Made by a program: the position numbers and the translations under genes. A stretch of 55,089 nucleotides of DNA from a bacterium (lineage in GTDB: Bacteria > Patescibacteriota > Patescibacteriia > JBAXGH01), in contig JBAXGH010000006.1 in assembly GCA_037139515.1 (NCBI GenBank), forward strand, positions 1 to 55,089, in the 5' to 3' direction. The notes below the pieces were generated by a model. That model was not told the origin of the DNA, did not search any database, and was given only the letters and a program-made list of their open reading frames with translations. This document shows positions 9,005 to 47,705 of the stretch, one piece after another (position 1 is the stretch's first letter; every line of letters starts with the position of its first letter).

Positions 9005-9025
9005 TACTGCACAACACAAACCGAA

Positions 9026-9056: not shown

Positions 9057-9170
9057 TGGCTCACTATCTGGAACCCCAATACACACGGGCAATGAAGGCG
9101 TTTTGCTGATTTTTCAGCATATAGGTTGAGGGCACTGCGCTCTCAACTTATTCATTACTCGCCTATTTCT

Positions 9171-9458: not shown

Positions 9459-9460
9459 GC

Positions 9461-11807: not shown

Positions 11808-11891
11808 GGTGGGGTAAACGACACAGGAAGTAGTGAGGCGAGCCATCCAATATCCGATGCTCACGTTTTCTAATTGATAACCAAACAACCT

Positions 11892-12440
11892 ATGGGCGAC
11901 ATCTCCCAAAAACAACTTGAAGCAAACCGCGAGAATGCAAAGAAAGGCGGTGTAAAATCCGCCGAAGGAAAAGCTGTAAGCCGTTACAATGCCATGAAGC
12001 ACGGGCTCTTGAGTAAAGAAGTTTTACTCCAAGATGAGGATGAGGCGGATCTCGTGTCACTTGGCAAAGAACTACGCTCCGAGCTCTCACCAGCCTCTGA
12101 AATGGAACTCATGCTCGTTGACCGCATCACGGCGAACGTGTGGCGCTTACGGCGTGCTATGCGGATGGAGCGCGAGATGATTGAGGATGACATGAAGCCA
12201 TCGCCTTATTCTGAAATTCAGAAAAATAAAACACTTGGACAGGCAATGAGCTATGACTTCAGTAACTCTGACACCTACGGCAAGCTCATCCGCTACGAGT
12301 CGAGTATTGAACGCGGTATCTACAAGGCTCTCCATGAGCTCCAGCGCCTTCAGGCGATGCGTAACGGTGAGAATGTCCCCCCACTTGTTGCGGTGGACGT
12401 AGCGTGGTCAGGCGACCAATCAGATGGGTTCGTTTCGTAA
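11892..12440 (+). CDS. Conserved hypothetical element protein
   Basis: QLEANRENAKK...GKAVSRYNAMKHGL motif, recalled from mobile-element proteins. Confidence 0.75.
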   Translation: MGDISQKQLEANRENAKKGGVKSAEGKAVSRYNAMKHGLLSKEVLLQDEDEADLVSLGKELRSELSPASEMELMLVDRITANVWRLRRAMRMEREMIEDDMKPSPYSEIQKNKTLGQAMSYDFSNSDTYGKLIRYESSIERGIYKALHELQRLQAMRNGENVPPLVAVDVAWSGDQSDGFVS

Positions 12441-12571
12441 AAGCGGTTGTTTTTTGAAGTGATAATCAAAATATTCAAAACAATCCCAACCAAGCCAATA
12501 AATGGAACTTCTCGAAGGAAACATAACCGTTCAATCCCAAATGATTTCGGTAAAGAAACCGCGAAACAAAT

Positions 12572-13186
12572 ATGGGTCGCCACAGCTATTCTGACAAAAC
12601 CGAAGCAGACCATCTCAAGAAGATTGAAATTAGCTGGCTCAAGAAGCACGGTTTTCTTGAAGACTGGAAGTCAGGAACTATTAGCTGGACGTACAACGTC
12701 ACGGGTGATCAAAGCAGTATTGGGATCGAAGTATCAGCCTTAGCTAACGAGCCCTTCGCCCGACTTCACTATACGCAAACCGAGAACAACGGCGAGCAAC
12801 AAAAATTCGATTACAAGATACCGCTCACTACATCACCCTGCCCGCTTGGTGGTGAACGCTATTGGTTTCTCTGTCCATTCTTTAGGAGCGGTGAATATTG
12901 CGGACAACGGGTTGGCGTTCTCTATAAAAACGGAGATTACTTCGCCTGCCGTCACTGCAACAATCTCACCTACAGTTCAAAAAATGAGAACCGCAAGTAC
13001 AAGATGTTTCCTTTATTCAGCGTTATGACGCTTGAGAAAAAGATCGAGGATCTTCAGGCTAAAATCAAACGCCCTTACTACGCTGGCAAGCCGACAAAGA
13101 AGCAAAGGCGACTTGAAAAACTCTACGATCAGGCGTCCGCGAAATACCGAAAATACCCTTCCAGTCCCCTTGAAATGCTGATATAA
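12572..13186 (+). CDS. Hypothetical protein with putative Zn-binding motifs
   Basis: GGERYWFLCP...C...FACRHC...LTYSS. Confidence 0.75.
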   Translation: MGRHSYSDKTEADHLKKIEISWLKKHGFLEDWKSGTISWTYNVTGDQSSIGIEVSALANEPFARLHYTQTENNGEQQKFDYKIPLTTSPCPLGGERYWFLCPFFRSGEYCGQRVGVLYKNGDYFACRHCNNLTYSSKNENRKYKMFPLFSVMTLEKKIEDLQAKIKRPYYAGKPTKKQRRLEKLYDQASAKYRKYPSSPLEMLI

Positions 13187-13335
13187 TGCTTTTGTTGACC
13201 CGATGCCACCAATCTGTGCGAGGTATTTTTTGTTGAACATGATAGTAGCCCGAAAGGGGCGGTTTGCCGCTATCTGTTCAATCCTCGCGATTGCATGTAT
13301 CGGGTCAACCAGACCGTCCCTCTCGGGCTTTTTGT

Positions 13336-14949
13336 ATGAACAAACCTACCGACAAAATCAAATATTTTCTTTACGCGAGAAAATCATCGGAGAGCGATGA
13401 CCGTCAGGTTCAGTCTATCGATGATCAAATAAATCGCCTCAAGGAGTTCGCAAAAACTCTCAATCTTGATGTGAAAGAAATCATCACCGAGGCTATGTCC
13501 GCAAAGAAGCCGAGCGCGCGACCCATCTTCACCAAGATGATGGAGCGCATACAAAAAGGCGAGGCTCAAGGAATTCTTTGTTGGCAGATCAATCGCCTCA
13601 GTCGCAATCCAGTCGATTCTGGAATGATTAGCTGGATGCTTCAGCAGGGCGTATTGAAGTGCATTCAAACGATAGACCGTCAGTATCTCCCAGATGACAA
13701 TGTGCTCCTTTTCAACGTGGAAAGTGGCACCGCGAACCAATTTGTCATTGATTTACGCAAAAACAGCATGCGTGGCATGGTCGGAAAGGCGGATCGCGGT
13801 TGGTATCCATCTCGTGCTCCACTTGGGTATCTCAACGAAAAGCTCGAACACACCATTTATGAAGATCCAGAGCGCTTTGAGATGGTTCGAAAAATGTGGG
13901 ACATGATGCTGACGGGAAATTTCTCTCCGCCAAAGATCATCGAGATTGCGAATCGGGAGTGGGGCTTCCGAACATCAAAAGGTAAACGCCGTGGTGGCAA
14001 CGAACTCATTCAAAGCGTCATCTATAAAATGTTCGCCAATATTTTTTATACGGGAATGTTTGAATGGTCAGGAAAACTCTATAACGGAAATCACAAGGCA
14101 ATGATTACCATGGAAGAGTTTGATCGCGTGCAGATTCTCTTGGGTAGAAAAGGTAGACCTCGTCCCAAAACACATGCCTTCGCTTACACGGGTCTCATGC
14201 GCTGTGCAGAATGTGGCTCGATGTACACCGCTTGTGAGAAAACTAAAGTAGTGAAGAGCGAGGGGGTGCTAAAAACATACGTTTACTATTCTTGTACCAA
14301 AAAGAAGAAGGACACTAGGTGTACCCAACGCCCCATGACACTCGAAGAACTTGAAGGACAGGTAGATATCGAACTTGAAAGATATACTATCCTCCCCCAA
14401 TTTCAACAGTGGGCTCTTGAGATATTGAATCGCAAGAATGACGAGGAAATAGTAGATCGAACCAAGATATACGAGACGCAACACGCTTCTCTTACGGAAA
14501 CACAGAAAGAGCTCGATAATCTCACCCGCATGCGCTATCGGGAGCTTATTGATGACTCTACATTCATTCAGGAACGCGACATCTTGAAAGAGAAAATCTC
14601 TAAACTCAAAAATAATCTACGAGAAACGGAGAACCGCGCCGAGGTGTGGCTTGAGCTTACTGAGAAAACTTTTCACTTCGCTACCTACGCACGTCATAAA
14701 TTCCAAACAGGAACTCTTGATGAGAAGCGCGAGATCTTCACCGCACTTGGTCAGAACTTTTTGGTAAAAGATAAGAAAGTCAGCATTGATACCAATAAAT
14801 GGTTCCTTCCAATCGAAAAGGCTTATCCAGCACTCGAAGCAGCATTCAATCGGCGGGAACTAAATAAAAACGTTGATAACAAAAGCAGAAGTGAACACAG
14901 GGATTCACTTCTGCTCTTACTGGGTGCCCAACCGGATTCGAACCGGTGA
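13336..14949 (+). CDS. Large serine recombinase (integrase)
   Basis: YARKSS catalytic motif, NRLSRN, APLGY, Zn ribbon (CAEC...C...C), coiled coil; the ORF ends inside tRNA-His. Confidence 0.95.
   Translation: MNKPTDKIKYFLYARKSSESDDRQVQSIDDQINRLKEFAKTLNLDVKEIITEAMSAKKPSARPIFTKMMERIQKGEAQGILCWQINRLSRNPVDSGMISWMLQQGVLKCIQTIDRQYLPDDNVLLFNVESGTANQFVIDLRKNSMRGMVGKADRGWYPSRAPLGYLNEKLEHTIYEDPERFEMVRKMWDMMLTGNFSPPKIIEIANREWGFRTSKGKRRGGNELIQSVIYKMFANIFYTGMFEWSGKLYNGNHKAMITMEEFDRVQILLGRKGRPRPKTHAFAYTGLMRCAECGSMYTACEKTKVVKSEGVLKTYVYYSCTKKKKDTRCTQRPMTLEELEGQVDIELERYTILPQFQQWALEILNRKNDEEIVDRTKIYETQHASLTETQKELDNLTRMRYRELIDDSTFIQERDILKEKISKLKNNLRETENRAEVWLELTEKTFHFATYARHKFQTGTLDEKREIFTALGQNFLVKDKKVSIDTNKWFLPIEKAYPALEAAFNRRELNKNVDNKSRSEHRDSLLLLLGAQPDSNR
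14881..14918 (-). terminator. Element-supplied terminator for tRNA-His, inside the recombinase ORF
   Basis: AGCAGAAGTGAA...TTCACTTCTGCT inverted repeat with a T tract on the minus strand. Confidence 0.7.
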
Positions 14950-14994
14950 AAACAGGACCACAACCTGTTGTGTTACCGCTACACTATGGGCACC
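14923..14994 (-). tRNA. tRNA-His (GTG)
   Basis: G-1 plus GTGCCCA/TGGGCAC acceptor stem, C discriminator, anticodon arm ACAGG-TTGTGGT-CCTGT, T arm ACCGG-TTCGAAT-CCGGT. Confidence 0.97.
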
Positions 14995-15021: not shown

Positions 15022-15813
15022 CTAACTTTGCTTCTTTTGCAATAACTCCGCATTGATTTCCTCATTTTTCAGTTCCCTCTCCCGAACCGCACCGAGTGCA
15101 ATCTCAAACAAAATCCGCATCGTTTTTGCGAGTGTCGGGCTTTCAATCAAAACAGAACACATGTCACCCTCAAAAGTCACCATCGCAATCTTATCACCCA
15201 TGATCATGATATCGGTGCCGAAATCTTTGTAATATTCCGGCAGATGGTATCGCTCCGGTTGAGCCGCGTTCGGCGCAAATTCTCCGGCACACAAACCCTT
15301 CGATACGATTCCGTGCCGCTGCAGTGCGTCCCGAAGAGGCGCTAAATCTTCCGGCTTCAAAACTTTTCGCATCGCATTCAAGTCGGCAATCTCAAGTATC
15401 TCGCCTTTTGTCGCGCCGGATTCGATATCGTGCAAAATCGCGCGCACACCTTCGCGACCGGTGTAAACATGAACCCGCGGACGATTTCCGCCCATCACGC
15501 GTTCCAGTTCTTTGATTTTTAAACTAACTTCTTCGCGCAATTCGTGAAGTTCCTGCTCGCGCCGTGTGAGTAGCCACGCTAATTTTGACGGATGCTCAGC
15601 AATAAAAACGCGACGTCCTTTTTCTTCAAATGAAGAGATCATCGAAATCCCGGTGAGCTTTTCGAGAGCCTCGTAAACCGATTGACGCGACAATCGAGTC
15701 AGCTTGCTAAGCTCAAGAACCGTCGAAGGTCCGCACTTTAAAGCTTCGAAATATACCCTGGATTCGGCATCGGAAAACCCGAGCGAGCCGAGCGTGTCTT
15801 TAATCTCAGTCAT
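15022..15813 (-). CDS. TrmB-family transcriptional regulator
   Basis: LGFSDAESRVY...LSRQSVYEALEKL wHTH followed by the YTGREGV domain. Confidence 0.88.
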   Translation of the reverse strand: MTEIKDTLGSLGFSDAESRVYFEALKCGPSTVLELSKLTRLSRQSVYEALEKLTGISMISSFEEKGRRVFIAEHPSKLAWLLTRREQELHELREEVSLKIKELERVMGGNRPRVHVYTGREGVRAILHDIESGATKGEILEIADLNAMRKVLKPEDLAPLRDALQRHGIVSKGLCAGEFAPNAAQPERYHLPEYYKDFGTDIMIMGDKIAMVTFEGDMCSVLIESPTLAKTMRILFEIALGAVRERELKNEEINAELLQKKQS

Positions 15814-24234: not shown

Positions 24235-24774
24235 CTAAATATGACAATCAAAAACCAAAACCGCTTTATCTTTATTTTCTTCCAAAATCTTTTTTACTTT
24301 TTCGATCCAAGCGTCCAGCTCGCGGTTGTCTTCCTCGGTACCGGCGCCGTAAAACATCGGACCCTGAATCCATTTTCCGTCCGGAGTGAAGACTGCGAGT
24401 ACAATTCTTTCTTGATTACCTTCGCCGAATAATTGCACTCCGTAATTTTCAGGCCGAGCTTCTCCAAGCATGACGCAATAATCAAAATGCCCTTCCGGAT
24501 TTTGTGTTGAGATATTAAACAAGCCGCCTTCATCAACGCCGCCTTCGGTACCGTCCCATGTCTTCATGTACGCTGCGAGTGGTTTTAAATCACTCGGATC
24601 GAGTTCAGTATATTCCGCCATGCTCTTGATTTGTTCCGGAGAAATATACGTTTTATACGGCGGAACTTCGGTGTTGATATTAAACTTTTCAAGCATCTCA
24701 ACCGTTTCGCTCTCTATTTGTTCTAACCCGCGCTCACCTCTTTCCACCAAAACCACGGCATTATAATGAGACAT
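24235..24774 (-). CDS. Hypothetical protein
   Basis: 179 aa; MSHY...NPEGHFDY...VFTPDGKW...DCHI. Confidence 0.8.
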   Translation of the reverse strand: MSHYNAVVLVERGERGLEQIESETVEMLEKFNINTEVPPYKTYISPEQIKSMAEYTELDPSDLKPLAAYMKTWDGTEGGVDEGGLFNISTQNPEGHFDYCVMLGEARPENYGVQLFGEGNQERIVLAVFTPDGKWIQGPMFYGAGTEEDNRELDAWIEKVKKILEENKDKAVLVFDCHI

Positions 24775-25043
24775 AATAATCTTGAATAGTAGTTACGAAC
24801 GATTGTATCGAGAATTGAGGTATTTAAAAAGCGTACCGTTGTAGAAACCGGTGCGCGAGTGATGAATGTGGTGGGAATTACGCCTAGCCGCACAGCGCGT
24901 GCGGCGTCGTTGTCCGGGGCTCGGCGACGCACGATGTGCCTCGCCGACGTTCCGCGTCGGTCGCCATGGCGACCTAGCGTCACTTCTGCCCGTTCGATTC
25001 CCACCAGATAATATTAAAATGCACCAACTTGCGTTGGTGCTTG

Positions 25044-25406
25044 TGGTGGAGGTGGTGGGAATCGAACCCACGTCCGAAAAGGATCTACAGGGTGCATCTT
25101 CGCGCGTAGCTTCATGATCGGCGATGTTCCGCCCTCGGTTCACGAGCAAACCGGCTTGGGTCTTGACCCTCGCGGCGCATCACAATCTGTCTTATTTTCC
25201 CGTAGCTGTGATACCCGGGAAAACCAGCCTCACATTCTGCATCAGTTCACTCGCTTGAGGCGCGCAAGTGGCTGATGCCGGAGTTCATAGTCTCCGGAAC
25301 TGACCCATTCAGGCGGCAGTTTGGGGTTTGCCCGTGATTTACGTGGCCTCGGGCACCACGGCGCGCAGCATCCAGCTTCATCTCTCCGTCGAAACCTGTC
25401 ACCCCC
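25044..25406 (-). ncRNA. ssrA: tmRNA
   Basis: 5' GGGGGTGACAGGTTTCGAC and 3' GACGTGGGTTCGATTCCCACCACCTCCACCA; G3:U70 pair; PK1 (CGTGG/CCACG, TGCCCG/CGGGCA); 363 nt. Confidence 0.96.
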
Positions 25407-25481
25407 TCAAAACTGATTACACTATAATCAACTTTGAGGGAACGCGCACCGGTGTGAACACGGTGCGGAAAGAGGAAAAGT

Positions 25482-26012
25482 TCAGGTATAGGTGCAGAGC
25501 GCATCTTCGTCGTTCATGCAGTCGTGCGAGGGGTAGCGGCTGAAGCTCCGAAAGAATTCCGGCTTCAGAACAGTACACTCGCCCGGCTCATGTTGAGCAA
25601 AGAAGTGCGCGAAAGTGACGGCGACCGCGTAAGAAACGTTGTGCTTCAGCTTGCGAACCACGTCCCCATTCACTTCCTCAACCACGCGCCAGCCTTTGCG
25701 CTCTACATCGCGATGATCAAAGCAGCTGCAGGTGCGGTTCCCGTATCGGACACAAACAACCGAACTCGGAAAATGGGTTTCGGCTCGAAGATCTTCTTCG
25801 CACCTCGGCCTGGCGTAGTGCTCGGTGTAGACATAGTCGGGTGATTTTTCATCCCCCGCTCGTCCGAAATAGTCGATGGCCTCGGCATAGGTCGGAAACT
25901 TTCTGAGGGCCGAAAAAGTCTCGTTCGCCTCGATGATGTTTCCAACGGTCCGGATGCCGACCCAGAACTCTTCTTGAACCTTCACAACGTCCAACAAGTT
26001 TTCTGCGCTCAT
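25482..26012 (-). CDS. Hypothetical protein
   Basis: GGAGG RBS before the ATG at 26012. Confidence 0.65.
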   Translation of the reverse strand: MSAENLLDVVKVQEEFWVGIRTVGNIIEANETFSALRKFPTYAEAIDYFGRAGDEKSPDYVYTEHYARPRCEEDLRAETHFPSSVVCVRYGNRTCSCFDHRDVERKGWRVVEEVNGDVVRKLKHNVSYAVAVTFAHFFAQHEPGECTVLKPEFFRSFSRYPSHDCMNDEDALCTYT

Positions 26013-26087
26013 GTGAGCCTCCGTATCAGTGCGGAAAGAGGTTATCCCTTTCCTTCTCAAAAGCTCGAGTTACAAATCGAGCACTTA

Positions 26088-26916
26088 AGAAGAAACGGGA
26101 GCTAGAGTTTCCTCCAGCCCCCGTGCGTCCCTTGCGGGAAGAGTCAGTAGCGAGTTTAGAGAGGGTTGGCGATAACACAGTTACGCAAAGTCCCTTTTCT
26201 ATCTCGCTTGCATCCTTGGAGGATTCATCATGAGGCGCTTCGCGAACTGCGCTGCCCCAAATGTCCCGTCCCAAGAGGTACTACTGTCAGATGACGTTTG
26301 CCAAGGTCGCAGACCCTAGCATTCGTCTTATCTTACGCCGCTCCATTCGGAGCAAGGCGCGGGTGTGCGTGAGCTCGGTTGACGCCGACTCCGCCCTTCA
26401 CCCGGGATTCCTTGCGAGCGGTTGTCATTCCACTCCAAGGCTATCTCTCGATTCCCTCCTTTCACCCCTTTGGGGATCCCGGAAGGTGGCAAGAAGGGCT
26501 GCGAACCCCACCGAGGATTTTGGCCCTCGAACCTGCACGTAAGGCGTCTGTCTGCCTTGCGCCGTCGCCCCAATTAGGAGCTCCGCTTTGACACTTGACC
26601 CAATGTTTACCGGTCGAACTTCCTTTAACCAGGCGAGTATTCAGCTACAGGCTACGGCCCGTGCCTAGTCGTCGCTCCGGCAGAAGTCCTATCCCTTCAC
26701 GAACGCTTTTGCATTCGCTACAGGCTTTTGCCCTTCCTTACGCTCGTCGCATCCCCGTATCCTCCTTGAAGGTTTGTTCGGGTCAGCTCGGATTGTTTCG
26801 GTCGGGCGAGGTTCCGGCACTCCCTCATCGATATGATTGGCTCATTCGAGCCGATCTAAAGTTTCGATTCTTTCGAAGCTTCGGATCGGCTCGAAGTGCC
26901 TTGCGTCATCATCACG
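26088..26916 (-). ncRNA. Candidate large structured ncRNA (~830 nt)
   Basis: Consensus promoter upstream, terminator hairpin at the 3' end, many short hairpins, no credible ORF. Confidence 0.6.
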
Positions 26917-26922
26917 AGCAGT

Positions 26923-26951
26923 ACTATAACACGATTTCAAATTTCTGTCAA
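26923..26951 (-). promoter_or_regulatory. Sigma70 promoter
   Basis: TTGACA-17bp-TATAGT. Confidence 0.85.
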
Positions 26952-27119
26952 GCGTCTAGTGTTCATGCTCTGACATTTTTGCTCTGTTGCAGGCATTAAT
27001 TGTCTATTTCTAGCTTTATTTTCAATGCTGTCATCCTTCGCCATTATTGTTGTCATCCCGAAGCCGAGGCATCTTGAAATGTGTTTTCCGAATCCTGCGA
27101 AGAGGACTAACTCTTAAGA

Positions 27120-27208
27120 CGTCGTCCTTGAAACTCGAGCACGAGTTATCAAGGATCCATGTTGGTCATGGGTCCAGGGTAAAGTCTGCTGACTTTTCGA
27201 GGATGACG
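27120..27208. repeat. REP-like palindrome related to 20801-20883
   Basis: Shares GAAACTCGAGCACGAGTTATC (inverted) and the CGAGGATGACG terminus. Confidence 0.7.
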
Positions 27209-27287
27209 AAGTGATTACCCCTCTTTGTTTGAATCCTATCTTTGGGCGGCAGATAGGCGTGCCTTTTTTAAAAGCCCCAACTAGACT

Positions 27288-27485
27288 TCAGTGTCCGAAA
27301 CGGTTTTCGCGATGAAGACGCCCGCGGCGGCCATGCTTGATCTCCGCCGCCATCATGGCGAGCGGCTGGAATTCGGGCGAATCCTCGCCATCAACCGAGC
27401 ACTCGAGCATCTCGAGGAGCTTCAACCCCCCGAAAGGCCCGTCGAAAACGTTCTGGGAATTTTTCTTCCCGCTTTCTCGCGCCAT
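27288..27485 (-). CDS. Small hypothetical protein (65 aa)
   Basis: GGAGG RBS before MARESGKK. Confidence 0.5.
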   Translation of the reverse strand: MARESGKKNSQNVFDGPFGGLKLLEMLECSVDGEDSPEFQPLAMMAAEIKHGRRGRLHRENRFGH

Positions 27486-27612
27486 ACTTCCTCCGCTTCT
27501 CGCCAAGTGGCGAGAAATGAAAACTGGAGCCCTATGCCCCACCGAAGTTTTCGAGTCGCTCAAAGCGTCTCAAAAATTTTGGTGGGGGTGGAAGTTTTGA
27601 GGACTTCCAAAC

Positions 27613-28140
27613 CTATTCCGCGAGGTAGCGCTCGATCCCAATGCGGAGAGCGCCTTCATCGTCGGGGGTGACGTCCATTTTGCAAGAGCCATCACAGGTC
27701 GTCGTCGTGACCTTGTGCGAACAACCCTTCGTCGGGTCATGCGCCCAGTCGAAGCTTGTGTGAACTTCGACGTGGTGAGTGCCGGTGCAAAAGCTGTCGC
27801 TCGAACTGCTACGCTTTCCGTAGCTAGTATCGAACCGACGGCCCGAAATTGCACCATCACGCGCGAACATCTCCGCCGAACCCGCGTCCAACTCAACCGG
27901 GTCTTCGACGATTCTGTCGCCTTCAACCAGAGACTTTCCTCCGCGGAGCTTTTGAAGCTCGACACGAAGGTCCGCCTCCTTCCTGCACGAACCATCGCAG
28001 TCACCTTCGACCGCAACGTCGTTCCTCGACTCGCCCGTATGACCGAAGTCATCGAGCGTCTTGCAGATGTGCTGCTTGCCGTCGCAAAAATGCAACGTCT
28101 CCCAGCCATCCGACCAGCCATGCTGATGCTTGCGCATCAT
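27613..28140 (-). CDS. Cys/His-rich hypothetical protein with repeated CDGSC motif
   Basis: GGAGGATTC-ATG; CDGSCRK and CDGSCKM repeats. Confidence 0.6.
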   Translation of the reverse strand: MMRKHQHGWSDGWETLHFCDGKQHICKTLDDFGHTGESRNDVAVEGDCDGSCRKEADLRVELQKLRGGKSLVEGDRIVEDPVELDAGSAEMFARDGAISGRRFDTSYGKRSSSSDSFCTGTHHVEVHTSFDWAHDPTKGCSHKVTTTTCDGSCKMDVTPDDEGALRIGIERYLAE

Positions 28141-28218
28141 GAATCCTCCATGCCTCGCCTTTTCAGGAGAGGACTTGTGGGTTGTGAATTGCAGTTGGGA
28201 TTATCCCACCCTCACAAG

Positions 28219-28323
28219 CTACCGCTTCTTGTTCGCCACGAACAGAGCTATCGTGGCTCGAAGAACAGGTATCTGTGAGAGAAGAACAAATCCGAGAACC
28301 AGCCACTGTGCCTGGACGCTCAT
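28219..28323 (-). CDS. 34-aa hydrophobic peptide MSVQAQWLVLGFVLLSQIPVLRATIALFVANKKR
   Basis: AAGGAGG RBS 5 nt upstream of the ATG; below the ORF-track cutoff. Confidence 0.5.
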   Translation of the reverse strand: MSVQAQWLVLGFVLLSQIPVLRATIALFVANKKR

Positions 28324-28466
28324 AAGCGCCTCCTTGGAGCAGGATGCCCCACCAAAAATCTCAAATTGATTTGAAAGCTTTGGTGAAGCTGCAAGGTATT
28401 CGGTCTTTTATTTCCTTGCTTTCCTCTTTTTTTTATCGTGCGGTCAGACGAGGAATCCGCACTAGC

Positions 28467-28682
28467 CTACCCTTCATAGTAGGCTTCTACCCGTGACCGA
28501 AGATCCCGATCTCGCCAGCAGAGTTTGAGGATTCGCGCCTCATCTCTGTCGGTGATTTCGAGCTTCTTCCCATGAATGACTTCGCAGCCACTCAGGGTCA
28601 CGCCGGTTGCACATCCCAACCGGAGATCGACACGAATGTGCCGACCGCGATAGCGGATTTCATGGCAGTCATAGGTCGCCAT
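28467..28682 (-). CDS. Small protein, paralog 1 (YRGR family)
   Basis: Alignable with 29150-29356; AAAGGGG RBS. Confidence 0.7.
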   Translation of the reverse strand: MATYDCHEIRYRGRHIRVDLRLGCATGVTLSGCEVIHGKKLEITDRDEARILKLCWRDRDLRSRVEAYYEG

Positions 28683-28699
28683 GCTCACCCCTTTCTGGC

Positions 28700-28975
28700 C
28701 GAGTTGTCGGCCGGTAGTTAGTAAGGAAATGCGCGTGCGGGATTCTCAGGTCGGGAATGGCTTTTGGCCACCTGAGTCTTTATCCGCTTACGTTTCGCGC
28801 CAACGCCTGTGACTGGCGGTCACAGGAAGGATTGGTTCGGAAGCGTCCTGGCCTCATCAAGAGTGTCTAGGGCTTGCCGAGCCCGGGATTGCGAACTTCC
28901 GCAACCTTTTCGACTCTCTCGCTGTACCTTTTCGCTCCGAGCCTATCGAGGACCTTTCAGTACCCCGGAACCCGC
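28700..28975 (-). ncRNA. Structured RNA motif 1, copy a
   Basis: Conserved blocks and hairpins shared with 29375-29625. Confidence 0.65.
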
Positions 28976-29149
28976 TTGAAAGTTCATTGAAAACTCTCAA
29001 GCTGGTCCCGGGATAGTGGCCCCACCGAAGCATTCGAGTCGTCTCAAATGTTTTGGTGAAGCCCGCAAGTTTCTGAAAATTCTCAGAAACCTGCGTGACG
29101 GTGACGGCTCGTTAGGCCCCCTGGAGCTTCCCCAGAGAATTACGGCCGA

Positions 29150-29356
29150 TCAGTCGGCATCTCCCAGCGTTCGGGCGCCCTTGCATTCGGGCTTCCGATC
29201 GATGAGCATGTCCAGCCGGCGCATGTCGCGCTCGGTGAACATGAGTGGCGCCCCTCGGAGGATTTCAATTCCTCCTCCCTCGAGGCTACCGTACCGCAGT
29301 GTCACCCGAAGGAGACGACCACGGTAGTACAGCTCACAACCCGTGTACCATGCCAT
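29150..29356 (-). CDS. Small protein, paralog 2 (YRGR family)
   Basis: Alignable with 28467-28682; AAGGAGG RBS. Confidence 0.7.
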   Translation of the reverse strand: MAWYTGCELYYRGRLLRVTLRYGSLEGGGIEILRGAPLMFTERDMRRLDMLIDRKPECKGARTLGDAD

Positions 29357-29374
29357 GGTGGCCTCCTTGGTGGG

Positions 29375-29625
29375 TTAGAGAAAGTAAGTCGGGCAACTTA
29401 TGGGTTATATCTGCTTTGGCGGTGGTGGGACATTGTCCCGCGCCTTGCAGACGTTTCCCATTCACATTGCGGCCCGTTTCACAACGCCTGATTTTGGCTG
29501 ATCAGGGGGGATCAGGATTACGCTTCCTGGCCTCGACACGATTTGAGTTAGGGCTGCCAGGCCCGCTCAAACCATGCTGTACCTTTGGCGCTTTCCCGTT
29601 TCGAGGACCCCTCGGAACCCCGTTT
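29375..29625 (-). ncRNA. Structured RNA motif 1, copy b
   Basis: Conserved blocks and hairpins shared with 28700-28975. Confidence 0.65.
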
Positions 29626-29769
29626 CAGTCATCGAGTATCGATGCTTGAAATGGGATTCCGAAGTGATCATCGTAGAGCTCTATGCCCCATCGAAGAGTC
29701 TGATTTTTCAGACGCTTTGATAGAGCCCGCACGAAAGCAGTGAAGCTCTTCGTGCGGAAGAAAGCAGAC

Positions 29770-30025
29770 TCGGGTTGGTGCAACACTTGCGTGTTGACTT
29801 GGCCCCGAGTTTTTGCCCGACCACTTTTCCGGTCAGGACTTTTCTTTCGAAGGGGCCCAAGCGACCCTCCGAAAGATACGCGGACATTCAGCCCATTTTC
29901 GTCGGAACCGCGAACCGACGATTATCCTTCCCGGTGCACTAGGGAGGGCGGGCCACGGAGGGTGACTTCATGCACCCTTGCAAGACAGATCGGCGCCGAT
30001 CCGTGCTTGCAAGGCTCCGTGGAGC
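29770..30025 (-). ncRNA. Structured RNA motif 2, copy A
   Basis: 35/37 nt identical block and compensatory stems versus 30103-30385. Confidence 0.65.
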
Positions 30026-30102
30026 AGTCTATAGCGTCCTCAAAATCGAGCGGCGCCCGTTATCTCGACGTAGCTGCTCAGCCACCTCCGAGGCGGTAGG
30101 GT

Positions 30103-30385
30103 TCGGGTTGGTTCAACACTTGCGTGCTGACTTGGCCCCTTGCCCTATTGTGTCCTCTACCGTCTCCGGTGAGGATTCTTGCGTTCTCCAAGGCGCCCAA
30201 GCGAGCCTCGGATAATCGTGGGCTAAGTTGCCTCATTTACTCCTCTCGCCCCACGCGTCGAGAGAAGCTATCCTCCGTGGTGCACTTCGGAGGCTGAGGG
30301 GTGTTGCGCACGACGGGTGATACTGCTGCACCCCTCACGAGTCGGCCGGAAATCGGTCCGACGCTCGCGAGTTCCGTCGTGTCTT
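30103..30385 (-). ncRNA. Structured RNA motif 2, copy B
   Basis: 35/37 nt identical block and compensatory stems versus 29770-30025. Confidence 0.65.
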
Positions 30386-30559
30386 ACTCGCCCGCCGCTT
30401 CCTCTTTCGAAGCCCGCGGGTCGGTGAAATTTTATTTACTGGCAGTCTTCGCTCGCCAGGCGTCCGGGAACTGCCCCCAGATTTTAACGAAGCCTGTGAC
30501 CCGGGCCGTCGGGGCGAGATACTTGACTCGCAACGTTTAGACTTCTTGGCCGGATGGGT

Positions 30560-30937
30560 TCAGGTCTTGGGCACCGACGGAATCACTTCCGCCGGCAGGT
30601 CGCGCAAGACCTTCTTCACCTCCTCCGTTTGACCGGTGAGGCTGAAGTAGTCCTTGCATCCCTGGCGCTCCTCGGCGCTATCCACTTCCTTGAGTCCCAT
30701 CCTTTCCACCGCAATCGCTCTTCCCAGACACCACTGCCCCATATTTTCCGGGGCGAGCGGCTCGAAGAAGAACATCTGCAGGGCGGCCATGACTATCGCG
30801 CTGAGGCTCATCTGTTTCTCCGCATGCCTCACCATCCCTGGCGAGGACTTGTGATTTTGGAGCTCCTTGCTCCGCCGAAGAGCCTGGTTTGTCAGGCGCT
30901 TGAGTGGAGCAAGGAGTCTTTCGAGTTGGTCTGTCAT
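30560..30937 (-). CDS. Hypothetical protein, nearly leaderless
   Basis: ATG 13 nt downstream of a consensus -10. Confidence 0.6.
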   Translation of the reverse strand: MTDQLERLLAPLKRLTNQALRRSKELQNHKSSPGMVRHAEKQMSLSAIVMAALQMFFFEPLAPENMGQWCLGRAIAVERMGLKEVDSAEERQGCKDYFSLTGQTEEVKKVLRDLPAEVIPSVPKT

Positions 30938-30950
30938 CTCGCTGGGCAGG

Positions 30951-30979
30951 ACTATAACATAAACTTTTAATTATGTCAA
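30951..30979 (-). promoter_or_regulatory. Sigma70 promoter
   Basis: TTGACA-17bp-TATAGT. Confidence 0.85.
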
Positions 30980-31117
30980 GTGTCAGGTGTACATGGCAAG
31001 TTTATTTATCTAAAATGAGCCGATTTATAAACTAATAAACAACATGACTGTCCGTGATAGTGTATTTGAAAATTGAAAAATCACCACTCTTGATGGTGAT
31101 TTTCATCGACAAATCCA

Positions 31118-31387
31118 TTATCTCAACTTTCGATAGATCGAATGGTCTCCAACGCGCAATAATTCGACGATATTCCCCTCCTTAAATCGAAATGCAACTC
31201 GATTGTGATAGTCGACGCTGAAGGACCAGCGATTTTTATGATTTGAAAGCTTGTGCGTTTTGAGAAGTGGATGAAACGGATTTTCTTGAAAAAGACGCCC
31301 GCGAACTTTTACCGATTCCCGGATAGAGACGGGCAGTTTTTTGTAATCGCGTTTAAACTCCGGGGCATAAAATATTTCGTATCCCAT
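31118..31387 (-). CDS. Type II toxin, RelE/YafQ family mRNA interferase
   Basis: FKRDYKKL...NPFHPLLKTHKL...WSFSVDYHNRV...VGDHSIY. Confidence 0.9.
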   Translation of the reverse strand: MGYEIFYAPEFKRDYKKLPVSIRESVKVRGRLFQENPFHPLLKTHKLSNHKNRWSFSVDYHNRVAFRFKEGNIVELLRVGDHSIYRKLR

Positions 31388-31395
31388 ATATACGA

Positions 31396-31671
31396 TTAGG
31401 CATCCAGATCATCCCAATTTTTCAGCTTTTTAGCCTTCCCGGCATCACACAATCGTTCAGCTTCAGCGACAAGTTTATCTAGATGCTTCATATCGTAGGC
31501 ATAACTATCTGCAACGAGAGCATTATAAGTTTCAACGTCTAACATCACCGCCTCGGGAACGCTGTTATTGATAATGAGAACCGCATCATGGCTTTTCTTG
31601 GCAGAGTCAATCACGGCACGATAGTTTCGCTGCAAATCCCGCACGGAATATGTTTGGGTAATAGATGTCAT
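31396..31671 (-). CDS. Type II antitoxin, Phd/YefM family
   Basis: SVRDLQRNY...VLIINNSVPEAVML; directly upstream of the toxin; TTGACT-17-TAGTAT promoter. Confidence 0.9.
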   Translation of the reverse strand: MTSITQTYSVRDLQRNYRAVIDSAKKSHDAVLIINNSVPEAVMLDVETYNALVADSYAYDMKHLDKLVAEAERLCDAGKAKKLKNWDDLDA

Positions 31672-31726
31672 ACGCTGACATACTATTGTATGTAAAATTA
31701 TAAGTCAAGAAACTATCCTCAAATCA

Positions 31727-31775
31727 AAAACCCCATCAGAGACTTCGAGGATGCTTGAAGCTTCTGATGGGGTTT
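31727..31775. repeat. Intergenic palindrome family member
   Basis: AAAACCCCATCAGA...TCTGATGGGGTTTT; near-identical arms at 32504-32549. Confidence 0.75.
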
Positions 31776-31855
31776 TGCATTTTATCCTGCCCTATCGAAG
31801 CTCAGAAATATTTCCGAGTTTTGATAGGGAGAGAAGGCCGGAGAACTCGAAGTTC

Positions 31856-32266
31856 TCAACGCCTTCCCACTGACCCGCGAGCGAGCGGGATCCTTTGATC
31901 AGGGTCGATGGTCACGGTCCGGATTCCGATTCGCAGGGCGAGGTGGCCCTTCGTATCCCGAACGTACCAACCGCTCTGTTTCGAGCATTGCGCCCTACCA
32001 AAAACCGCTTCGCCGGTTCCAGTCGAGATTTTGATCTCGACGCACTCCATCTTTCGATGGAGACGACGGAACTCGTCGATGCAGTAATAGTAAGCGCACC
32101 ACTCGCCTTTCTCGAGATGCGGCTCGACAAAATAGTCCGAGCCGCCGTGGAGTGCGCAAGTCTCCACTATCTGTGCGGCCTCTCCAGCCCACTCGTCGGC
32201 ATGGGCCTGCAACTTGCCCCACACCTTCGGCGACGAAGCGGCCACGATTTTGATGTGTGTACCCAT
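31856..32266 (-). CDS. Hypothetical protein
   Basis: GGAGGATTC-ATG; 5' UTR shared with 27613-28140. Confidence 0.65.
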   Translation of the reverse strand: MGTHIKIVAASSPKVWGKLQAHADEWAGEAAQIVETCALHGGSDYFVEPHLEKGEWCAYYYCIDEFRRLHRKMECVEIKISTGTGEAVFGRAQCSKQSGWYVRDTKGHLALRIGIRTVTIDPDQRIPLARGSVGRR

Positions 32267-32588
32267 GAATCCTCCTGTGCCTCGGTTTTCAAGCGAGGAC
32301 TTGTGAGGGTGTTTGTTGCCGGCAATGACCGCTTGCCAAGCGCCCCGGAGCTTCCCCGGAGTATTACGGCCGAATATGTCGGCATCAGTTTGCGACTCAT
32401 GATCGTAGACGGGATTTGTGCACCGATATTCCGGTACACCCGTTCGTTCGATCAGAGCCATATATTTTCAATTTTGTCTTATTCTGAGATTTTGATTTTC
32501 ACCAAAACCCCATCAGAAGCTTCAAGTGTTCTTGAAATCTCTGATGGGGATGGGAGTATCGTGAGACTCCCGGCTCTTTGCATGCCTC

Positions 32589-32990
32589 TCAGTGATCCTT
32601 TTTCTTCGCCGTGAAGTACTTCATTTGAACATACTTGGCGAGAGCGAGGATAACGAGTATCGGCGTGCAAACCTCGCGGAACACCGGCATGCACAACAGC
32701 ATGATGCCGGTCACGGCGAGCCAGAACGTAATGCTCTTCAGGCATTCCTCATGGAGGATACCCAAGGGCACCGCGCCGATCATGGCGCCGACAAGAATCT
32801 GTCGGCTGCCATCGTCTGCGTTTGTCGTGAAGAATACGACAACTCCGGCGAGGACCGCGACCGCGAGCGCGATGAAGGCGCCCTGCCGGATCGCCGCCTC
32901 CGCCGGGGTGTGGTGCCGCGTCGCGACGATGGTCGCAACAAGAATCGCGAGCGGAACCAACCACCACATGGAAACGATGAGCTCAGCCAT
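32589..32990 (-). CDS. Small multi-pass membrane protein
   Basis: About four hydrophobic segments; AAAGGA RBS. Confidence 0.7.
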   Translation of the reverse strand: MAELIVSMWWLVPLAILVATIVATRHHTPAEAAIRQGAFIALAVAVLAGVVVFFTTNADDGSRQILVGAMIGAVPLGILHEECLKSITFWLAVTGIMLLCMPVFREVCTPILVILALAKYVQMKYFTAKKKDH

Positions 32991-33467
32991 GGTGCGTTCC
33001 TTTCCGGAGCCTGTGGCTCTCAAGGGTGGGTCCAAAGAACTTTACTTCGCGCGAGGGGACAGTCCCCTGCGGCTTTGGGGACGGTCCCCGTCGCGCGAAT
33101 TACCATTTCATCCAGAATAGAGGGATGGAAAGCATTCGGGGTTCTGACTTCGTTCGGCGGGCGCCCCTATAAAGAAGGCAAGTTGCCGAAATCGGAGACG
33201 TACTGACCGGTGCTTCCAACACTCTATTCTGAGCGAAATACGTTTGTCAAAGACTGCAAACCTTTTTCTGACAAGCAATATAACACATTCCGGCAAACAT
33301 GTCAAGAGATTACTTAACGCTTTATCAGCAATAACTTATTATACGGCTTATATAAGCTATTATTTGTATGTTATCTTCAACGTACAAAGTATACTTTTAC
33401 GATATATCAAAACACCTGGCATTAAAGTCAGGTGTTGACAAATTATGACAAGTGTGTTAGTATACTG

Positions 33468-33807
33468 TTACGCACAACCAGAACATCGACTCGCGATGGT
33501 CGCGGAACCGGTGACTTTACAGAAGTGCGTAGAATTCGGAGACCGAAATGATCGGCGGAAACTGCTAGGCAGGAGAAAACACGAGAAATTAGAAAAACTT
33601 TGCGCCCCCTGGCAGGAGCGCAAGTAACAGTCTCATGACAAGCTACTTGCCTTCGAGGCTGTGAAGGAAAAACTCAAAGCATCCCCACCTACCGCTTGCT
33701 CCCGATCCCCCTTTGCCAGGAGGTGACCCATGATCGGTGCATAGCACCACCCTACCGCCGAGCGTAACATCCACTAGGGATGCGAAACTCGACGCGGGTG
33801 GTTTTTT
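33468..33807 (+). ncRNA. Candidate structured ncRNA (~340 nt)
   Basis: TTGACA...TAGTAT/TATACT promoter at 33435-33466, 3' hairpin with T tract, internal stems. Confidence 0.45.
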
Positions 33808-34583
33808 TATTCCTTGACTTCTAGTCTTGCCACTTCTTTGTGAGCAAGCGAGAATAATTTTCTCATTGCATCAGCAATGGCTTTATTTTCCATTATCACT
33901 GAATACATTTTTCCTTCGAAAGTTACAAACATTATTTTATTACCGTAAACTGCGATATTCGCCTTAAACCTTCCCATTTCTGCCGGAAGATATCTTAGCG
34001 CACATTCATCATTTTTTTCACCTGATAAAACCCCTAACGCTTCAACCGGCTCTCCGCCAAAATATATTCCACGCACACAAGATTTTGCCTTTATTACTGA
34101 CTCCTTCAATGGCTTTAGCTCTCCCGGCATAAATGTCGCTCGAACGGCTTCGATGTCAGAAATCTCATCAATCTGCTTTGACTGCGCGGACTGCATGTCT
34201 GCAAGGATATTCCGCACGCCCTCTTTACCCTCAAACATGCGCACGATTGGCTTTTCACCGCCCAAAGACAATTCCAATTCCGGAACCACGCGTTCGAGCT
34301 CCGAAATTTTTTCTTTCATCTCAACCTCGCGGCGGCGCGCATAGGCGAGTAATTTCTCCGGATGTTCGGCGGCAAATAACTTTTTCTTTTCAACCATGAC
34401 GCTCGCCATGATGCCGCGCGCAATCAAAGATTCGATCGCGACATAAACCGCCTGACGCGATAATCGTGTTGATTTTGTTAGCTGAATCACGGTTCCCGGA
34501 CCATGTCCGAGCGCCGCCATGTAAGTCTTGATTTCGCTCTCGAGAAGTCCGAGCGACTGGAGAATTGGCTTGATGTCTTTCAT
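33807..34583 (-). CDS. TrmB-family transcriptional regulator (paralog of 15022-15813)
   Basis: LGLLESEIKTY...TRLSRQAVY; FEGKEGV. Confidence 0.88.
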   Translation of the reverse strand: MKDIKPILQSLGLLESEIKTYMAALGHGPGTVIQLTKSTRLSRQAVYVAIESLIARGIMASVMVEKKKLFAAEHPEKLLAYARRREVEMKEKISELERVVPELELSLGGEKPIVRMFEGKEGVRNILADMQSAQSKQIDEISDIEAVRATFMPGELKPLKESVIKAKSCVRGIYFGGEPVEALGVLSGEKNDECALRYLPAEMGRFKANIAVYGNKIMFVTFEGKMYSVIMENKAIADAMRKLFSLAHKEVARLEVKE

Positions 34584-46574: not shown

Positions 46575-47690
46575 CTACTGTCTGATAGGCATCACGATAT
46601 ACAAATGTCCGGTCTCACCTTCCGGCGCAACCACCATTGGATTTCCACCGTCAATAATTTTCAATCTAACTTTATCACCAGAAACACTCTGAATACCGTC
46701 CAAAAGATAGCGATGATTCACAGTAAGCGTATTCAAATCACCTTGAACTTCGGCTTCCAAAGTCACCGAGTTTTCCCCAGTCTGTTGATCATTTGAGGAT
46801 AAAGTTATTGAGTTTTGGCCGACCGAAAGCGTCACATCACAAAGTCCGGAACGCGAGAAAAGCGAAGCGTTTTTAATCGCCGGCAAAAGCAATTCTTTAG
46901 AAATTACAACTTCTGTGCGGGTAACCGTTGGGATAATCACTTTATACTCAGGATAATTTCCCTCGATGGCGCGCGAAACCAATTCGGTGCCGCCAATTCT
47001 GACAACAATCTGATTATCCGAGAGTCCAATCGAAACCTTCGAACCCGCTTCCAAATCTTCACGCATAATTCCAAGAATGCGGAAAACTTCGGCCGCAGTT
47101 CTGGAAGGCATAATACATTTCACTTCTTCCGCGGCTGGTTCGAGCAAAGGAATTACCTTTTCAGCGAGCCTAAAACTATCCGTCGCGGCAAAAGTTAAAG
47201 TCGATCCGGAAAAGAGAAAATAAATTCCGCACAATTCCGGGCGCGATTCATGGGACGCAACTGCAAACAATGTTTGCGCTAAAGCCCCACGAAGATCATC
47301 AACCTCAACATGGAACTCATGCTTTAATTCAACCGATGGTACGAGTGGAAATTCCGTCGCCGGTACGCCACGAATTTTCGTACTATAAGTTCCGCATCGA
47401 ATTTCAAGTGATTGCCCAGTAAGACTCAAGTCTACACGCTCAGTAGGAAGCAACGTCGTATAGTCGGAAAAGAGTTTTCCGGGAATCGTGAATTCCCCCG
47501 GCTCATCAACCTTTCCTCGAATAGTTGCCGTGATCGCGATTTCCAAGTTAGTCGCTGAAAGCACGAAAACTTTTTCCTGAGCTCTAATTAGGATGTTATG
47601 AAGAATCGGTAAGTTCACGTTTTTAGTTGGAAGATGACAAACGAGTGAAAGTCCCTGATGAAGATTTTCTTGAGTGCAAGACAGCCGCAT
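46575..47690 (-). CDS. dnaN: DNA polymerase III beta clamp
   Basis: ATNLE, ATDSFRL, IEGNYPEY, YIVMPIR. Confidence 0.97.
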   Translation of the reverse strand: MRLSCTQENLHQGLSLVCHLPTKNVNLPILHNILIRAQEKVFVLSATNLEIAITATIRGKVDEPGEFTIPGKLFSDYTTLLPTERVDLSLTGQSLEIRCGTYSTKIRGVPATEFPLVPSVELKHEFHVEVDDLRGALAQTLFAVASHESRPELCGIYFLFSGSTLTFAATDSFRLAEKVIPLLEPAAEEVKCIMPSRTAAEVFRILGIMREDLEAGSKVSIGLSDNQIVVRIGGTELVSRAIEGNYPEYKVIIPTVTRTEVVISKELLLPAIKNASLFSRSGLCDVTLSVGQNSITLSSNDQQTGENSVTLEAEVQGDLNTLTVNHRYLLDGIQSVSGDKVRLKIIDGGNPMVVAPEGETGHLYIVMPIRQ

Positions 47691-47705
47691 AATTCAGATC
47701 GTCCC

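Follow-up and report, generated by a model that had tools for sequence, protein, structure and literature searches.

The DNA examined here, hereafter the window, is a 55,089-nucleotide stretch that corresponds to contig C6 (JBAXGH010000006.1) of a 1.33-Mb, 40-contig genome with 48.5% GC. The genome is Saccharibacteria-like, a member of the candidate phyla radiation (CPR), and the nearest genomes in our comparison set (0.7 to 1.6 Mb) are related to it only as members of the same class. On the minus strand of the window, between positions 25480 and 33810, an array of at least 10 small genes and long structured noncoding tracts lies between a gene for a TrmB-like regulator and ssrA, the gene for transfer-messenger RNA (tmRNA; 25044-25406, minus strand; Rfam RF00023, 130.3 bits). 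We describe this array, a predicted RNA-protein pair within it, and related arrays in other genomes. The locus is probably a hypervariable accessory-gene array, with modules exchanged horizontally and long transcripts punctuated by structured elements.

Organization of the array

A preliminary description of the region had proposed a minus-strand, GC-rich array of about 8 kb in which noncoding tracts follow near-consensus promoters; a promoter scan, GC measurements, and codon periodicity tests bear this out. In 300-nt windows, GC content is 0.51 to 0.64 across most of the region, compared with 0.485 for the genome. The exception is the Phd/ParE segment (0.37 to 0.43), which interrupts the GC-rich array. 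GC content at third codon positions (GC3) is 0.60 to 0.80 in array genes and 0.51 in the long open reading frames (ORFs) of the genome; since the coding parts are also GC rich, the composition points to a foreign or separate origin and not to RNA structure alone. The scan found 13 sigma-70-like sites in the region (6.6 ± 2.4 in shuffled sequence). Minus-strand sites that match 11 of 12 consensus positions and carry a TG extension start at 33305, 30979, and 26951, and weaker ones at 33250 (10/12) and 31708 (9/12). The array comprises four transcription units with strong predicted promoters.

Genes A, B, C, G, J2, and K have the codon pattern GC1 > GC2 < GC3 and codon-position GC spreads of 0.21 to 0.40, values reached by none of 500 shuffles, and genes of about 400 nt or longer show clear codon periodicity. 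The short genes D, E, and F are weaker in this respect (23, 41, and 28 of 500 shuffles). Periodicity is absent from an 836-nt unit (192/500) and from the E, K, and J leaders (293/500, 367/500, and 146/500). A Shine-Dalgarno site stands at the right distance before every gene but G. Given periodicity in the genes and none or only a faint trace in the tracts, the partition into genes and about 3 kb of well-folded noncoding RNA, a third or so of the locus, is sound, and the modular, partly noncoding layout described earlier holds. The ORFs listed earlier all exist (125, 68, 71, 34, 175, 65, and 176 aa), as does one of 201 aa at 31856-32461, although its start is more likely at 32266, behind an AGGAGG. 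Flanking and array genes are open under translation table 11, and an alternative genetic code was dropped from consideration.

Features of the region are as follows (window coordinates; "spread" is codon-position GC spread, followed by the number of shuffles reaching it).

33807-34583, minus: TrmB-like regulator gene (Pfam TrmB, 33.9 bits; host-like codon-position GC, 0.55/0.35/0.47)
33440-33806, no strand assigned: structured tail of the TrmB transcript, with a minus-strand terminator at 33600-33623
33445-33627, plus: 60-aa ORF converging on the end of the TrmB-like gene, with a promoter-like site at 33435 and a terminator-like sequence at 33787-33799
33221-33305, minus: two promoter-like sites of the K/J unit, TTGACA-17-TATATT (11/12) and TTGACA-18-TAGAGT (10/12)
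32991-33220, minus: K leader (spread 0.06, 367/500), containing the dispersed palindrome 33047-33098
32589-32990, minus: gene K, membrane protein of 133 aa, with Shine-Dalgarno site and ATG (spread 0.38, 0/500)
31721-32549, minus: J2 and its leader, bracketed by near-identical terminator-like palindromes at 32503-32549 and 31721-31782 (I1, I2, I14)
31856-32266, minus: gene J2, 136 aa, with AGGAGG and ATG at 32266 (spread 0.21, 0/500)
31396-31671, minus: Phd/YefM antitoxin gene (40.6 bits, cutoff 29.8), with its own promoter at 31708
31118-31387, minus: ParE/YafQ-like toxin gene (18.7 to 18.9 bits, below cutoffs of 23 to 30)
30951-30979, minus: main-unit promoter, TTGACA-17-TATAGT with TG (11/12)
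30560-30937, minus: gene G, 125 aa if leaderless from 30937, 83 aa from 30811 (spread 0.35 to 0.40, 0/500)
30869-30910, minus: border hairpin a, inside the 5′ part of G (I7)
29357-30559, minus: 1.2-kb noncoding tract with faint codon periodicity (spread 0.08, 41/500)
about 30060-30330 and about 29730-29990, minus: two copies of RNA motif 2, within the 1.2-kb tract
29685-29726, minus: border hairpin b
29452-29623, minus: motif 1 of F
29150-29356, minus: small protein F, 68 aa, E/F family, with AAGGAGG and ATG
28683-29149, minus: noncoding tract upstream of E, without periodicity (293/500)
29102-29161, minus: element in common with the J leader
29019-29062, minus: border hairpin c
28778-28968, minus: motif 1 of E (133.1 bits with model R1, described below)
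28467-28682, minus: small protein E, 71 aa, paralogue of F
28346-28389, minus: border hairpin d
28219-28323, minus: gene D, hydrophobic peptide of 34 aa, with AAGGAGG and ATG
27613-28140, minus: gene C, Cys-rich protein of 175 aa, with a Shine-Dalgarno site (spread 0.22, 0/500)
27536-27588, minus: border hairpin e
27288-27485, minus: gene B, 65 aa (spread 0.32, 0/500)
27017-27215, no strand assigned: spacer of dispersed repeats, about 35 nt at 27048-27082 and about 93 nt at 27117-27210
26923-26951, minus: promoter of the 836-nt unit
26095-26951 including the promoter, minus: 836-nt noncoding RNA unit, ending in a 13-bp intrinsic terminator at 26095-26124
25482-26012, minus: gene A, 176 aa, of a family with an invariant MSAE N terminus

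The toxin-antitoxin (TA) pair noted earlier, type II-like, thus has an antitoxin above the family cutoff and a toxin below it; the toxin gene has two paralogues on contig C4 of the genome. The RNA unit previously put at about 830 nt does extend from the 26951 promoter to the intrinsic terminator. On the plus strand, 33435-33810 may be an antisense or small-protein unit.

Motif 1 accompanies a family of small basic proteins

Proteins E and F are paralogous (43% identity over 51 aa; E value of 2e-10) and belong to a family of basic proteins of about 70 aa that is not in Pfam. In an alignment of 48 codons, 7 are the same in both genes, 15 have synonymous differences only, and 26 encode different residues, with third positions differing most often. 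A profile search added three further proteins and reached loci L017, L018, L019, and L020 and a locus in genome G255 (L025); L017 and L018 are near-identical metagenome contigs and count as copies of one locus. Within the class, the family has matches in 2 of 400 other genomes.

An RNA of about 170 nt that is not in Rfam, motif 1, is present at all seven E/F gene copies with readable flanks. It lies upstream of the gene in six of them (F, E, L017, L018, L019, and L020) and directly downstream in G255. Independent minimum-free-energy folds of the F, E, L019, L020, L018, and L025 copies give the same architecture: a 5′ hairpin is followed by a long-range helix that encloses a stem with a UGGCA hairpin loop, and then by a three-way junction carrying a GCCA-loop hairpin and a GCGUYR/YRAYGU hairpin. 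In the five aligned sequences the UGGC and GCCA loops do not vary; they are mutually complementary, and a loop-loop contact between them is predicted.

Alignment A13 was made with MAFFT from sequence only, and 36 of its pairs are backed by at least three independent folds. Across its five sequences, two of them paralogous, these pairs are 86.1% paired (75.8 ± 1.8 in shuffles), and 16 are changed on both sides (7.6 ± 1.9 in shuffles), with none of 500 shuffles reaching either value; alignments slid out of register give 38 to 51% paired. The check for covarying homologs suggested earlier favors motif 1. A covariance model built on A13 (R1) recovered the L025 motif, which was outside the training set (24.5 bits; E value of 7e-5). 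The same model found nothing convincing in 150 class genomes, where there was one marginal match of 19.7 bits, and no motif 1 in 15 further TrmB or A-family loci. A structure model of the E/F protein (pLDDT of 81.8) has no fold match in PDB (best E value of 0.28) and no known RNA-binding fold.

Motif 1 thus has a predicted secondary structure that is conserved, with covariation support. Because it covaries and is found together with one small protein, a pairing of this RNA with the protein is plausible; by these criteria, motif 1 and E/F are the one conserved candidate RNA-protein pair of the array and two new putative families. A CUUUCU pyrimidine stretch in motif 1 could, as read from the sequence, pair with the Shine-Dalgarno site. 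Motif 1 most likely acts in cis on E/F translation, with autoregulation favored over a trans-acting ribonucleoprotein (RNP).

Other structured RNA elements of the array

The duplications of motif 1 and motif 2 and the paralogy of the two small proteins, all noticed in the preliminary description, are real. Identity between the two copies of motif 2 is 73% over about 110 nt and 95% in a shared 37-nt core. The candidate ORFs of the two copies would translate this core in different frames, which indicates conservation as nucleic acid and ruled out motif 2 as coding sequence. Folding z-scores are −4.29 and −3.81, and 11 of 47 predicted pairs are changed on both sides between the copies. A 28-nt core pattern of motif 2 had no match in the genome_contigs or viral_contigs collections.

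The 836-nt unit folds better in the minus-strand orientation (z-score of −7.19) than in the plus-strand orientation (−4.27; 20 shuffles each). It was considered as RNase P RNA and rejected, RNase P lying at C9:119-673. That match, at 555 nt against a 367-position model, is longer than the model, which suggests large insertions in RNase P RNA. Searches of the genome for 6S RNA and small signal recognition particle (SRP) RNA found neither.

The recurring palindrome reported between modules proved to be a border hairpin present in five copies. Its basal stem, GCUUCACC/GGUGGGGC, is conserved; variation in the upper stem is compensated, both sides having changed in 7 of 18 pairs. Hairpins b and c lie about 50 to 60 nt upstream of the motif 1 copies. 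The J leader (z-score of −3.17) has elements in common with 29102-29161 and 28138-28179, and a recurring small hairpin, with a Shine-Dalgarno site and ATG behind it, precedes C, J2, and the internal start of G. Leader pieces common to C, J2, and G point to module shuffling within the locus.

At Rfam 15 gathering scores, the window contains only the tmRNA and one tRNA; none of the array RNA elements matches a family, and the subthreshold matches in the region are miRNA- or CRISPR-repeat-like chance matches. Ten window segments (the 836-nt unit, both motif 2 copies, the stretch from G to motif 2, the K and J leaders, the TrmB tail, the sequence after F, the D-C interval, and the sequence after B) had no nhmmer match in L017 to L020 or L025. 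Array DNA likewise had no match in 40 relatives, phages, or plasmids.

Related arrays behind TrmB orthologues carry mosaic cargo

A gene-neighborhood comparison across class genomes, one of the checks proposed earlier, found related arrays behind TrmB orthologues. TrmB-like genes as such are common and multicopy, with a match in 161 of 250 other genomes and two to seven copies in many class genomes. In the window's own genome (G000) there are five matches to the TrmB query, the four listed being two on C6, one on C23, and one on C14; a second TrmB-like gene of the window lies at 15022-15813. A close orthologue (44 to 52% identity) occurs in 16 genomes, and we examined 14 of these loci, dropping G192 and G222, whose contigs end within 1 kb. 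At about 8 to 10 of the 14, as judged by eye, an AT-rich dip gives way to a stretch that is GC rich and lacks long ORFs on the same strand. Orthologues at 44 to 53% identity precede such stretches in L020 and several class genomes, and GC-rich arrays stand behind a TrmB-like gene in the window, L019, L020, G017, and G158. The TrmB-like gene is, on this comparison, the putative conserved anchor of the array.

The region had been described as adjacent to tmRNA, and in the window it is. The conserved neighbor, though, is the TrmB-like gene: adjacency to tmRNA recurs at only one other examined locus, G079, where TrmB, 3 kb of DNA, and tmRNA follow one another on one strand as in the window. L020 has a partial, subthreshold tmRNA-like match (28.3 bits; 752-826) about 6 kb upstream of TrmB and a run of N (8071-8170) just after the array promoter; the run has duplicated flanks and is probably a scaffold gap.

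Between the window array and those of L019 and L020, only the TrmB-like regulator and the E/F proteins are held in common, the window TrmB protein being 53% identical to that of L020 and 22% identical to that of L019. The families common to different arrays are E/F, A, a 66-aa family in G079 and G017 (47% identity; E value of 2e-18), and a Zn-ribbon family in G049 and L017 (59% identity; E value of 4e-34). Raised GC content recurs as well: the L019 array has 46 to 49% GC in host DNA of about 31%, and the L020 array has 58 to 67% in surroundings of 53 to 58%. Higher GC, patchy spread, and mosaic cargo suggest an exchangeable accessory array rather than a dedicated RNA machine, and the combination of raised GC in hosts of 31%, 48.5%, and about 55% GC with rare families and shuffled cargo points to horizontal module exchange.

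The promoter at 26923-26951 is almost identical to one in L073 (G049:C5) at oriented position ~2208 (TTGACAGAA..TTT..AAAT..GTGTTAT..T), and the two arrays have no cargo genes in common. This near-identical sequence may be an operator for the TrmB-like protein.

Cargo proteins

No integrase or phage family was found in any ORF of the region with Pfam or PHROGs, in keeping with the preliminary description, and, the TA pair aside, no cargo protein of this window matched either collection. Among the cargo of related arrays, the only weak matches in Pfam and PHROGs were those of a 178-aa L020 protein, to DUF6847 (below cutoff) and to a PHROG annotated "tail fibre" (E value of 4.7e-8). The family of gene A comprises 31 proteins including itself (E value of ≤0.001) among 1.84 billion representatives (alignment A12). 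It is present in 2 of 400 other class genomes, G017 and G158, downstream of a TrmB-like gene in both, and in the Atlas search A yielded only leads to viral hypothetical clusters with a score of 0.79, below the accepted level. In a word-seeded search of 5.8 billion proteins, C found only itself, and no viral relative of G was found.

Candidate hammerhead ribozymes in related genomes

The L019 array carries five candidate type III hammerhead ribozymes (RF00008), all on the coding strand and between array modules, at the following L019 coordinates.

7926-7991, coding strand: type III hammerhead candidate
8778-8831, coding strand: type III hammerhead candidate
9509-9562, coding strand: type III hammerhead candidate, about 150 nt upstream of motif 1
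10328-10370, coding strand: type III hammerhead candidate
11466-11519, coding strand: type III hammerhead candidate

They score 24.9 to 44.4 bits (E values of 1.3e-7 to 0.045); in each, the CUGAUGAG...CGAAAC core is complete and the cleavage site is GUC or GUA. The first and the last are each directly preceded on the 5′ side by one copy of a 105-nt direct repeat (7828-7932 and 11369-11472; 93 to 94% identical, 3,540 nt apart), which could be the terminal redundancy of a unit-length RNA or a duplication at the DNA level.

Among 150 other class genomes, RF00008 has matches in 4. In G150 (L031; G150:C4, about 6000 to 12200), two same-strand type III hammerheads bracket an island of 52 to 64% GC in DNA of about 37% GC; the island encodes a 648-aa DEAH-type helicase and proteins of 707 and 305 aa, and neither an E/F gene nor motif 1 (R1) was found in it. 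Type III cores also occur in L033 (G129:C11) at 1328-1350 and 2244-2266, about 900 nt apart on one strand, and in L032 (G029:C2) at 8058-8080.

The separation of modules by five hammerhead candidates in L019 lends indirect support to the processing of long transcripts into units, which the L019 sequence directly implies as a prediction for that array. For the window, such processing is suggested by the corresponding position of its hairpins.

Surroundings of the array

Dispersed repeats found throughout the genome make up the spacer 27017-27215 and the palindrome 33047-33098, both of which lie outside the array proper. The ~35-nt element occurs in dozens of copies across contigs, the ~93-nt element in about 20, and the GC-rich palindrome, of about 50 nt, in 13 others on many contigs, each in both orientations. 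The three families are REP- or MITE-like, an unusual load for a 1.3-Mb genome.

A separate mobile or defense block occupies window positions 82-14993. It contains a Fic gene, a type I restriction-modification system (HsdR/S/M), a Toprim protein, a 755-aa reverse transcriptase (6737-9004), and a large serine recombinase (13264-14949) that abuts tRNA-His (14922-14993). The recombinase belongs to this separate element, 10 kb from the array. On the other side, dnaN and dnaA lie at 46575-49362, about 13 to 15 kb away, which places the array near the likely replication origin.

Comparison with known systems

Among known systems, the array comes closest to the hammerhead-flanked gene blocks of prophages. 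The excerpts of Perreault et al. (2011; PMC3088659) on which this comparison draws describe multiple hammerheads flanking single genes or short blocks of variable genes in prophages, with the processing of long transcripts inferred. Compared with the clusters in those excerpts, the window likewise has small genes that vary, are mostly unannotated, share one orientation, and are separated by structured elements; processing into gene-length RNAs would apply to both; and the homologous L019 array has five candidates in the same layout. The window differs in having long noncoding RNAs and a putative conserved RNA-protein pair, which are not mentioned in the excerpts of PMC3088659. It also differs from the clusters excerpted there in lacking a hammerhead, an integrase, and phage genes and in standing at a conserved chromosomal site behind a TrmB-like gene. 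In module exchange, the array may resemble an early or moron region of a phage.

Early operons of phage T7 type are cut by host RNase III at intergenic hairpins. The window is similar in its strong promoter, polycistronic small genes, and imperfect hairpins with internal loops, and its genome has RNase III genes. It differs in that cleavage at its hairpins is suggested by analogy, and a protein might equally well bind the basal stem GCUUCACC/GGUGGGGC, whose sequence is conserved.

Sedentary chromosomal integrons are arrays of small-gene cassettes with attC cores RYYYAAC and GTTRRRY, and attC clusters that lack an integrase are of the same kind. They share with the window small orphan genes in one orientation, TA pairs, imperfect palindromes with conserved bases and variable centers, and cargo that is mosaic between genomes. 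In contrast to integrons, the window has no IntI-type integrase (by Pfam, among region ORFs and window ORFs of at least 110 aa), its palindrome arms show no attC cores on reading of alignment A10, and several of its units have their own promoters and long structured leaders.

Ribosomal-protein leaders are autoregulated leader RNAs of small RNA-binding proteins, and motif 1 resembles them in being a conserved structured RNA that in most copies directly precedes a single gene for a small basic protein and contains pyrimidines predicted to be able to pair with the Shine-Dalgarno site. The differences are that E/F has no known RNA-binding fold and that the RNA follows the gene in G255. A genomic island integrated at tmRNA would lie at the 3′ end of ssrA and have an integrase and a repeat of that end. 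The array is instead 5′ of ssrA on the same strand and has no integrase; no search aimed at a repeat of the ssrA 3′ end was made.

Proposed mechanism and alternative explanations

On the reading that we favor as probable, an accessory array with exchanged modules, the TrmB-like protein would control the array promoters, and long polycistronic transcripts would be cut or insulated at the intermodule elements. In L019 these would be self-cleaving type III hammerheads; in the window their place would be taken by the conserved hairpins, which would probably serve either as stabilizing ends or as targets of a host nuclease, for instance RNase III. Each module would thereby yield an RNA with its own stability and translation. 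Motif 1 would sequester the E/F Shine-Dalgarno site through its CUUUCU stretch, and the basic E/F protein, its most likely ligand, would autoregulate its synthesis. Our guess is that the cargo consists of host-interaction or conflict genes.

Several observations weigh against this reading. Control of the array by the TrmB-like protein is a guess from adjacency. With no recombinase, att repeat, or other mobility gene found at the array, mobility is deduced from composition and distribution only. The criterion of the TrmB-locus survey was loose, and 4 of the 14 loci (L078, L079, L080, and L082) clearly have no array. No related locus has a homologue of K, J2, G, C, B, or D, which may therefore be lineage specific; C had no usable match in the Atlas, where its model was poor (pLDDT of 0.40). 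All five L019 hammerheads score below the Rfam gathering score of 48.5 bits. No ribozyme, whether RF00008 or another, was found at an E value of ≤5 in window positions 24500-34500, and none at an E value of ≤1 in the whole genome, so that the analogy of hairpin to ribozyme is one of position. The location of motif 1 behind the gene in G255 weakens a simple leader model, and the motif 1 statistics come from five sequences, two of them paralogous, from which the structure itself was derived.

Two points of the preliminary description come through these considerations in part. Processing into separate units gains from the hammerheads between the L019 modules and loses from the lack of a known ribozyme in the window. 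Its account of an RNA or RNP locus fits motif 1 with its one small protein, whereas most modules are ordinary small protein genes.

A dedicated RNA or RNP system, in which motif 1, motif 2, and the 836-nt RNA act in trans and the small proteins are subunits of particles serving one function, would account for the third of the locus that is structured noncoding RNA, for the co-occurrence of motif 1 with basic E/F proteins at 7 of 7 gene copies, for an independent RNA behind the gene in G255, and for an 836-nt unit with its own promoter and terminator. Among its proposed parts, however, only motif 1 and E/F are conserved between arrays; related loci contain no counterpart of motif 2, the 836-nt RNA, K, J2, G, C, B, or D. 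A machine of fixed parts would hardly carry mosaic cargo, and the E/F model lacks a fold match to known RNA-binding proteins, so that we consider such a system unlikely. Distinctly unlikely is a decaying acquired island, a prophage or plasmid remnant whose tracts are wrecked genes and whose repeats and hairpins are functionless leftovers. GC content and GC3 above those of the host, orphan cargo, an inserted TA pair, dispersed repeats, and families found in only 2 of 400 other class genomes each are what it would predict. Yet the tracts have no codon periodicity and no match in phage or plasmid collections; motif 1 structure is kept by compensatory changes across genomes; the locus retains intact promoters, Shine-Dalgarno sites, and terminators; most differences between E and F fall at third codon positions, 15 of 48 codons being changed only synonymously; and the same organization recurs behind TrmB orthologues. 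That GC-rich DNA of another organism was joined into the contig by the assembler has a close to negligible probability: the GC step at both borders and the dispersed repeats at 27.0 to 27.2 kb and 33.05 to 33.1 kb, which could mislead an assembler, are set against contigs from an independent assembler (Logan) that tile the array and its flanks without differences at depths of 14.5 to 20.5, single contigs that bridge tmRNA to A and the K leader to TrmB, and recurrence of the TrmB-array order in other genomes. The Logan contigs come from one DNA run, possibly of the source sample, and give weak but consistent support; their depth peaks only at dispersed repeats (200.7 at the spacer 27017-27215). 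The array, in our judgment, is not a decayed gene block or an assembly artifact.

Two further proposals give the RNA a larger part. In one, which we regard as quite improbable, the array represents a new class of exchangeable CPR modules insulated by RNA, each with a processing element and released as stable RNAs or RNPs, some of them of unit length and possibly circular. The window hairpin could then be a new self-cleaving or nuclease-guiding motif, and the pool of modules would move or persist partly at the RNA level, which the L019 repeat and hammerhead at both ends fit. In the other, bounded units are excised, circularized, or propagated as a mobile RNA-level element (retrozyme or viroid like), the DNA array being a chromosomal copy. 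The repeat and hammerhead at both ends of L019 would release a unit-length RNA with ligatable ends, the G150 GC-rich island lies between two hammerheads, and the excerpted PMC3088659 names circular products as possible, with none detected there. Internal hammerheads would nevertheless chop such an RNA, terminal repeats and ribozymes are absent from the window, and the array has no reverse transcriptase, the one at 6737-9004 belonging to another element; we hold this last proposal to be highly improbable.

Significance

Our search of one literature collection found no paper joining hammerheads with Saccharibacteria, one review in which both hammerhead and a CPR term occur, and, among the papers listed for Saccharibacteria and structured RNA, none that contained the name Saccharibacteria. 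With the L019 candidates, self-cleaving ribozymes may for the first time be connected to accessory-gene arrays in this lineage. CPR genomes are small and gene dense, yet about a third of these 8 kb is structured noncoding RNA, and a conserved locus of this kind calls for explanation. The accessory array that we favor supplies testable objects: the motif 1 RNA family, absent from Rfam 15; its partner E/F family, absent from Pfam; and the hypervariable array anchored by a TrmB-like gene. The locus also lets predicted processing of transcripts by ribozymes be compared with predicted processing at hairpins in homologous positions. If the cargo consists of host-interaction or antidefense genes, the locus would be a marker for such genes in episymbionts.

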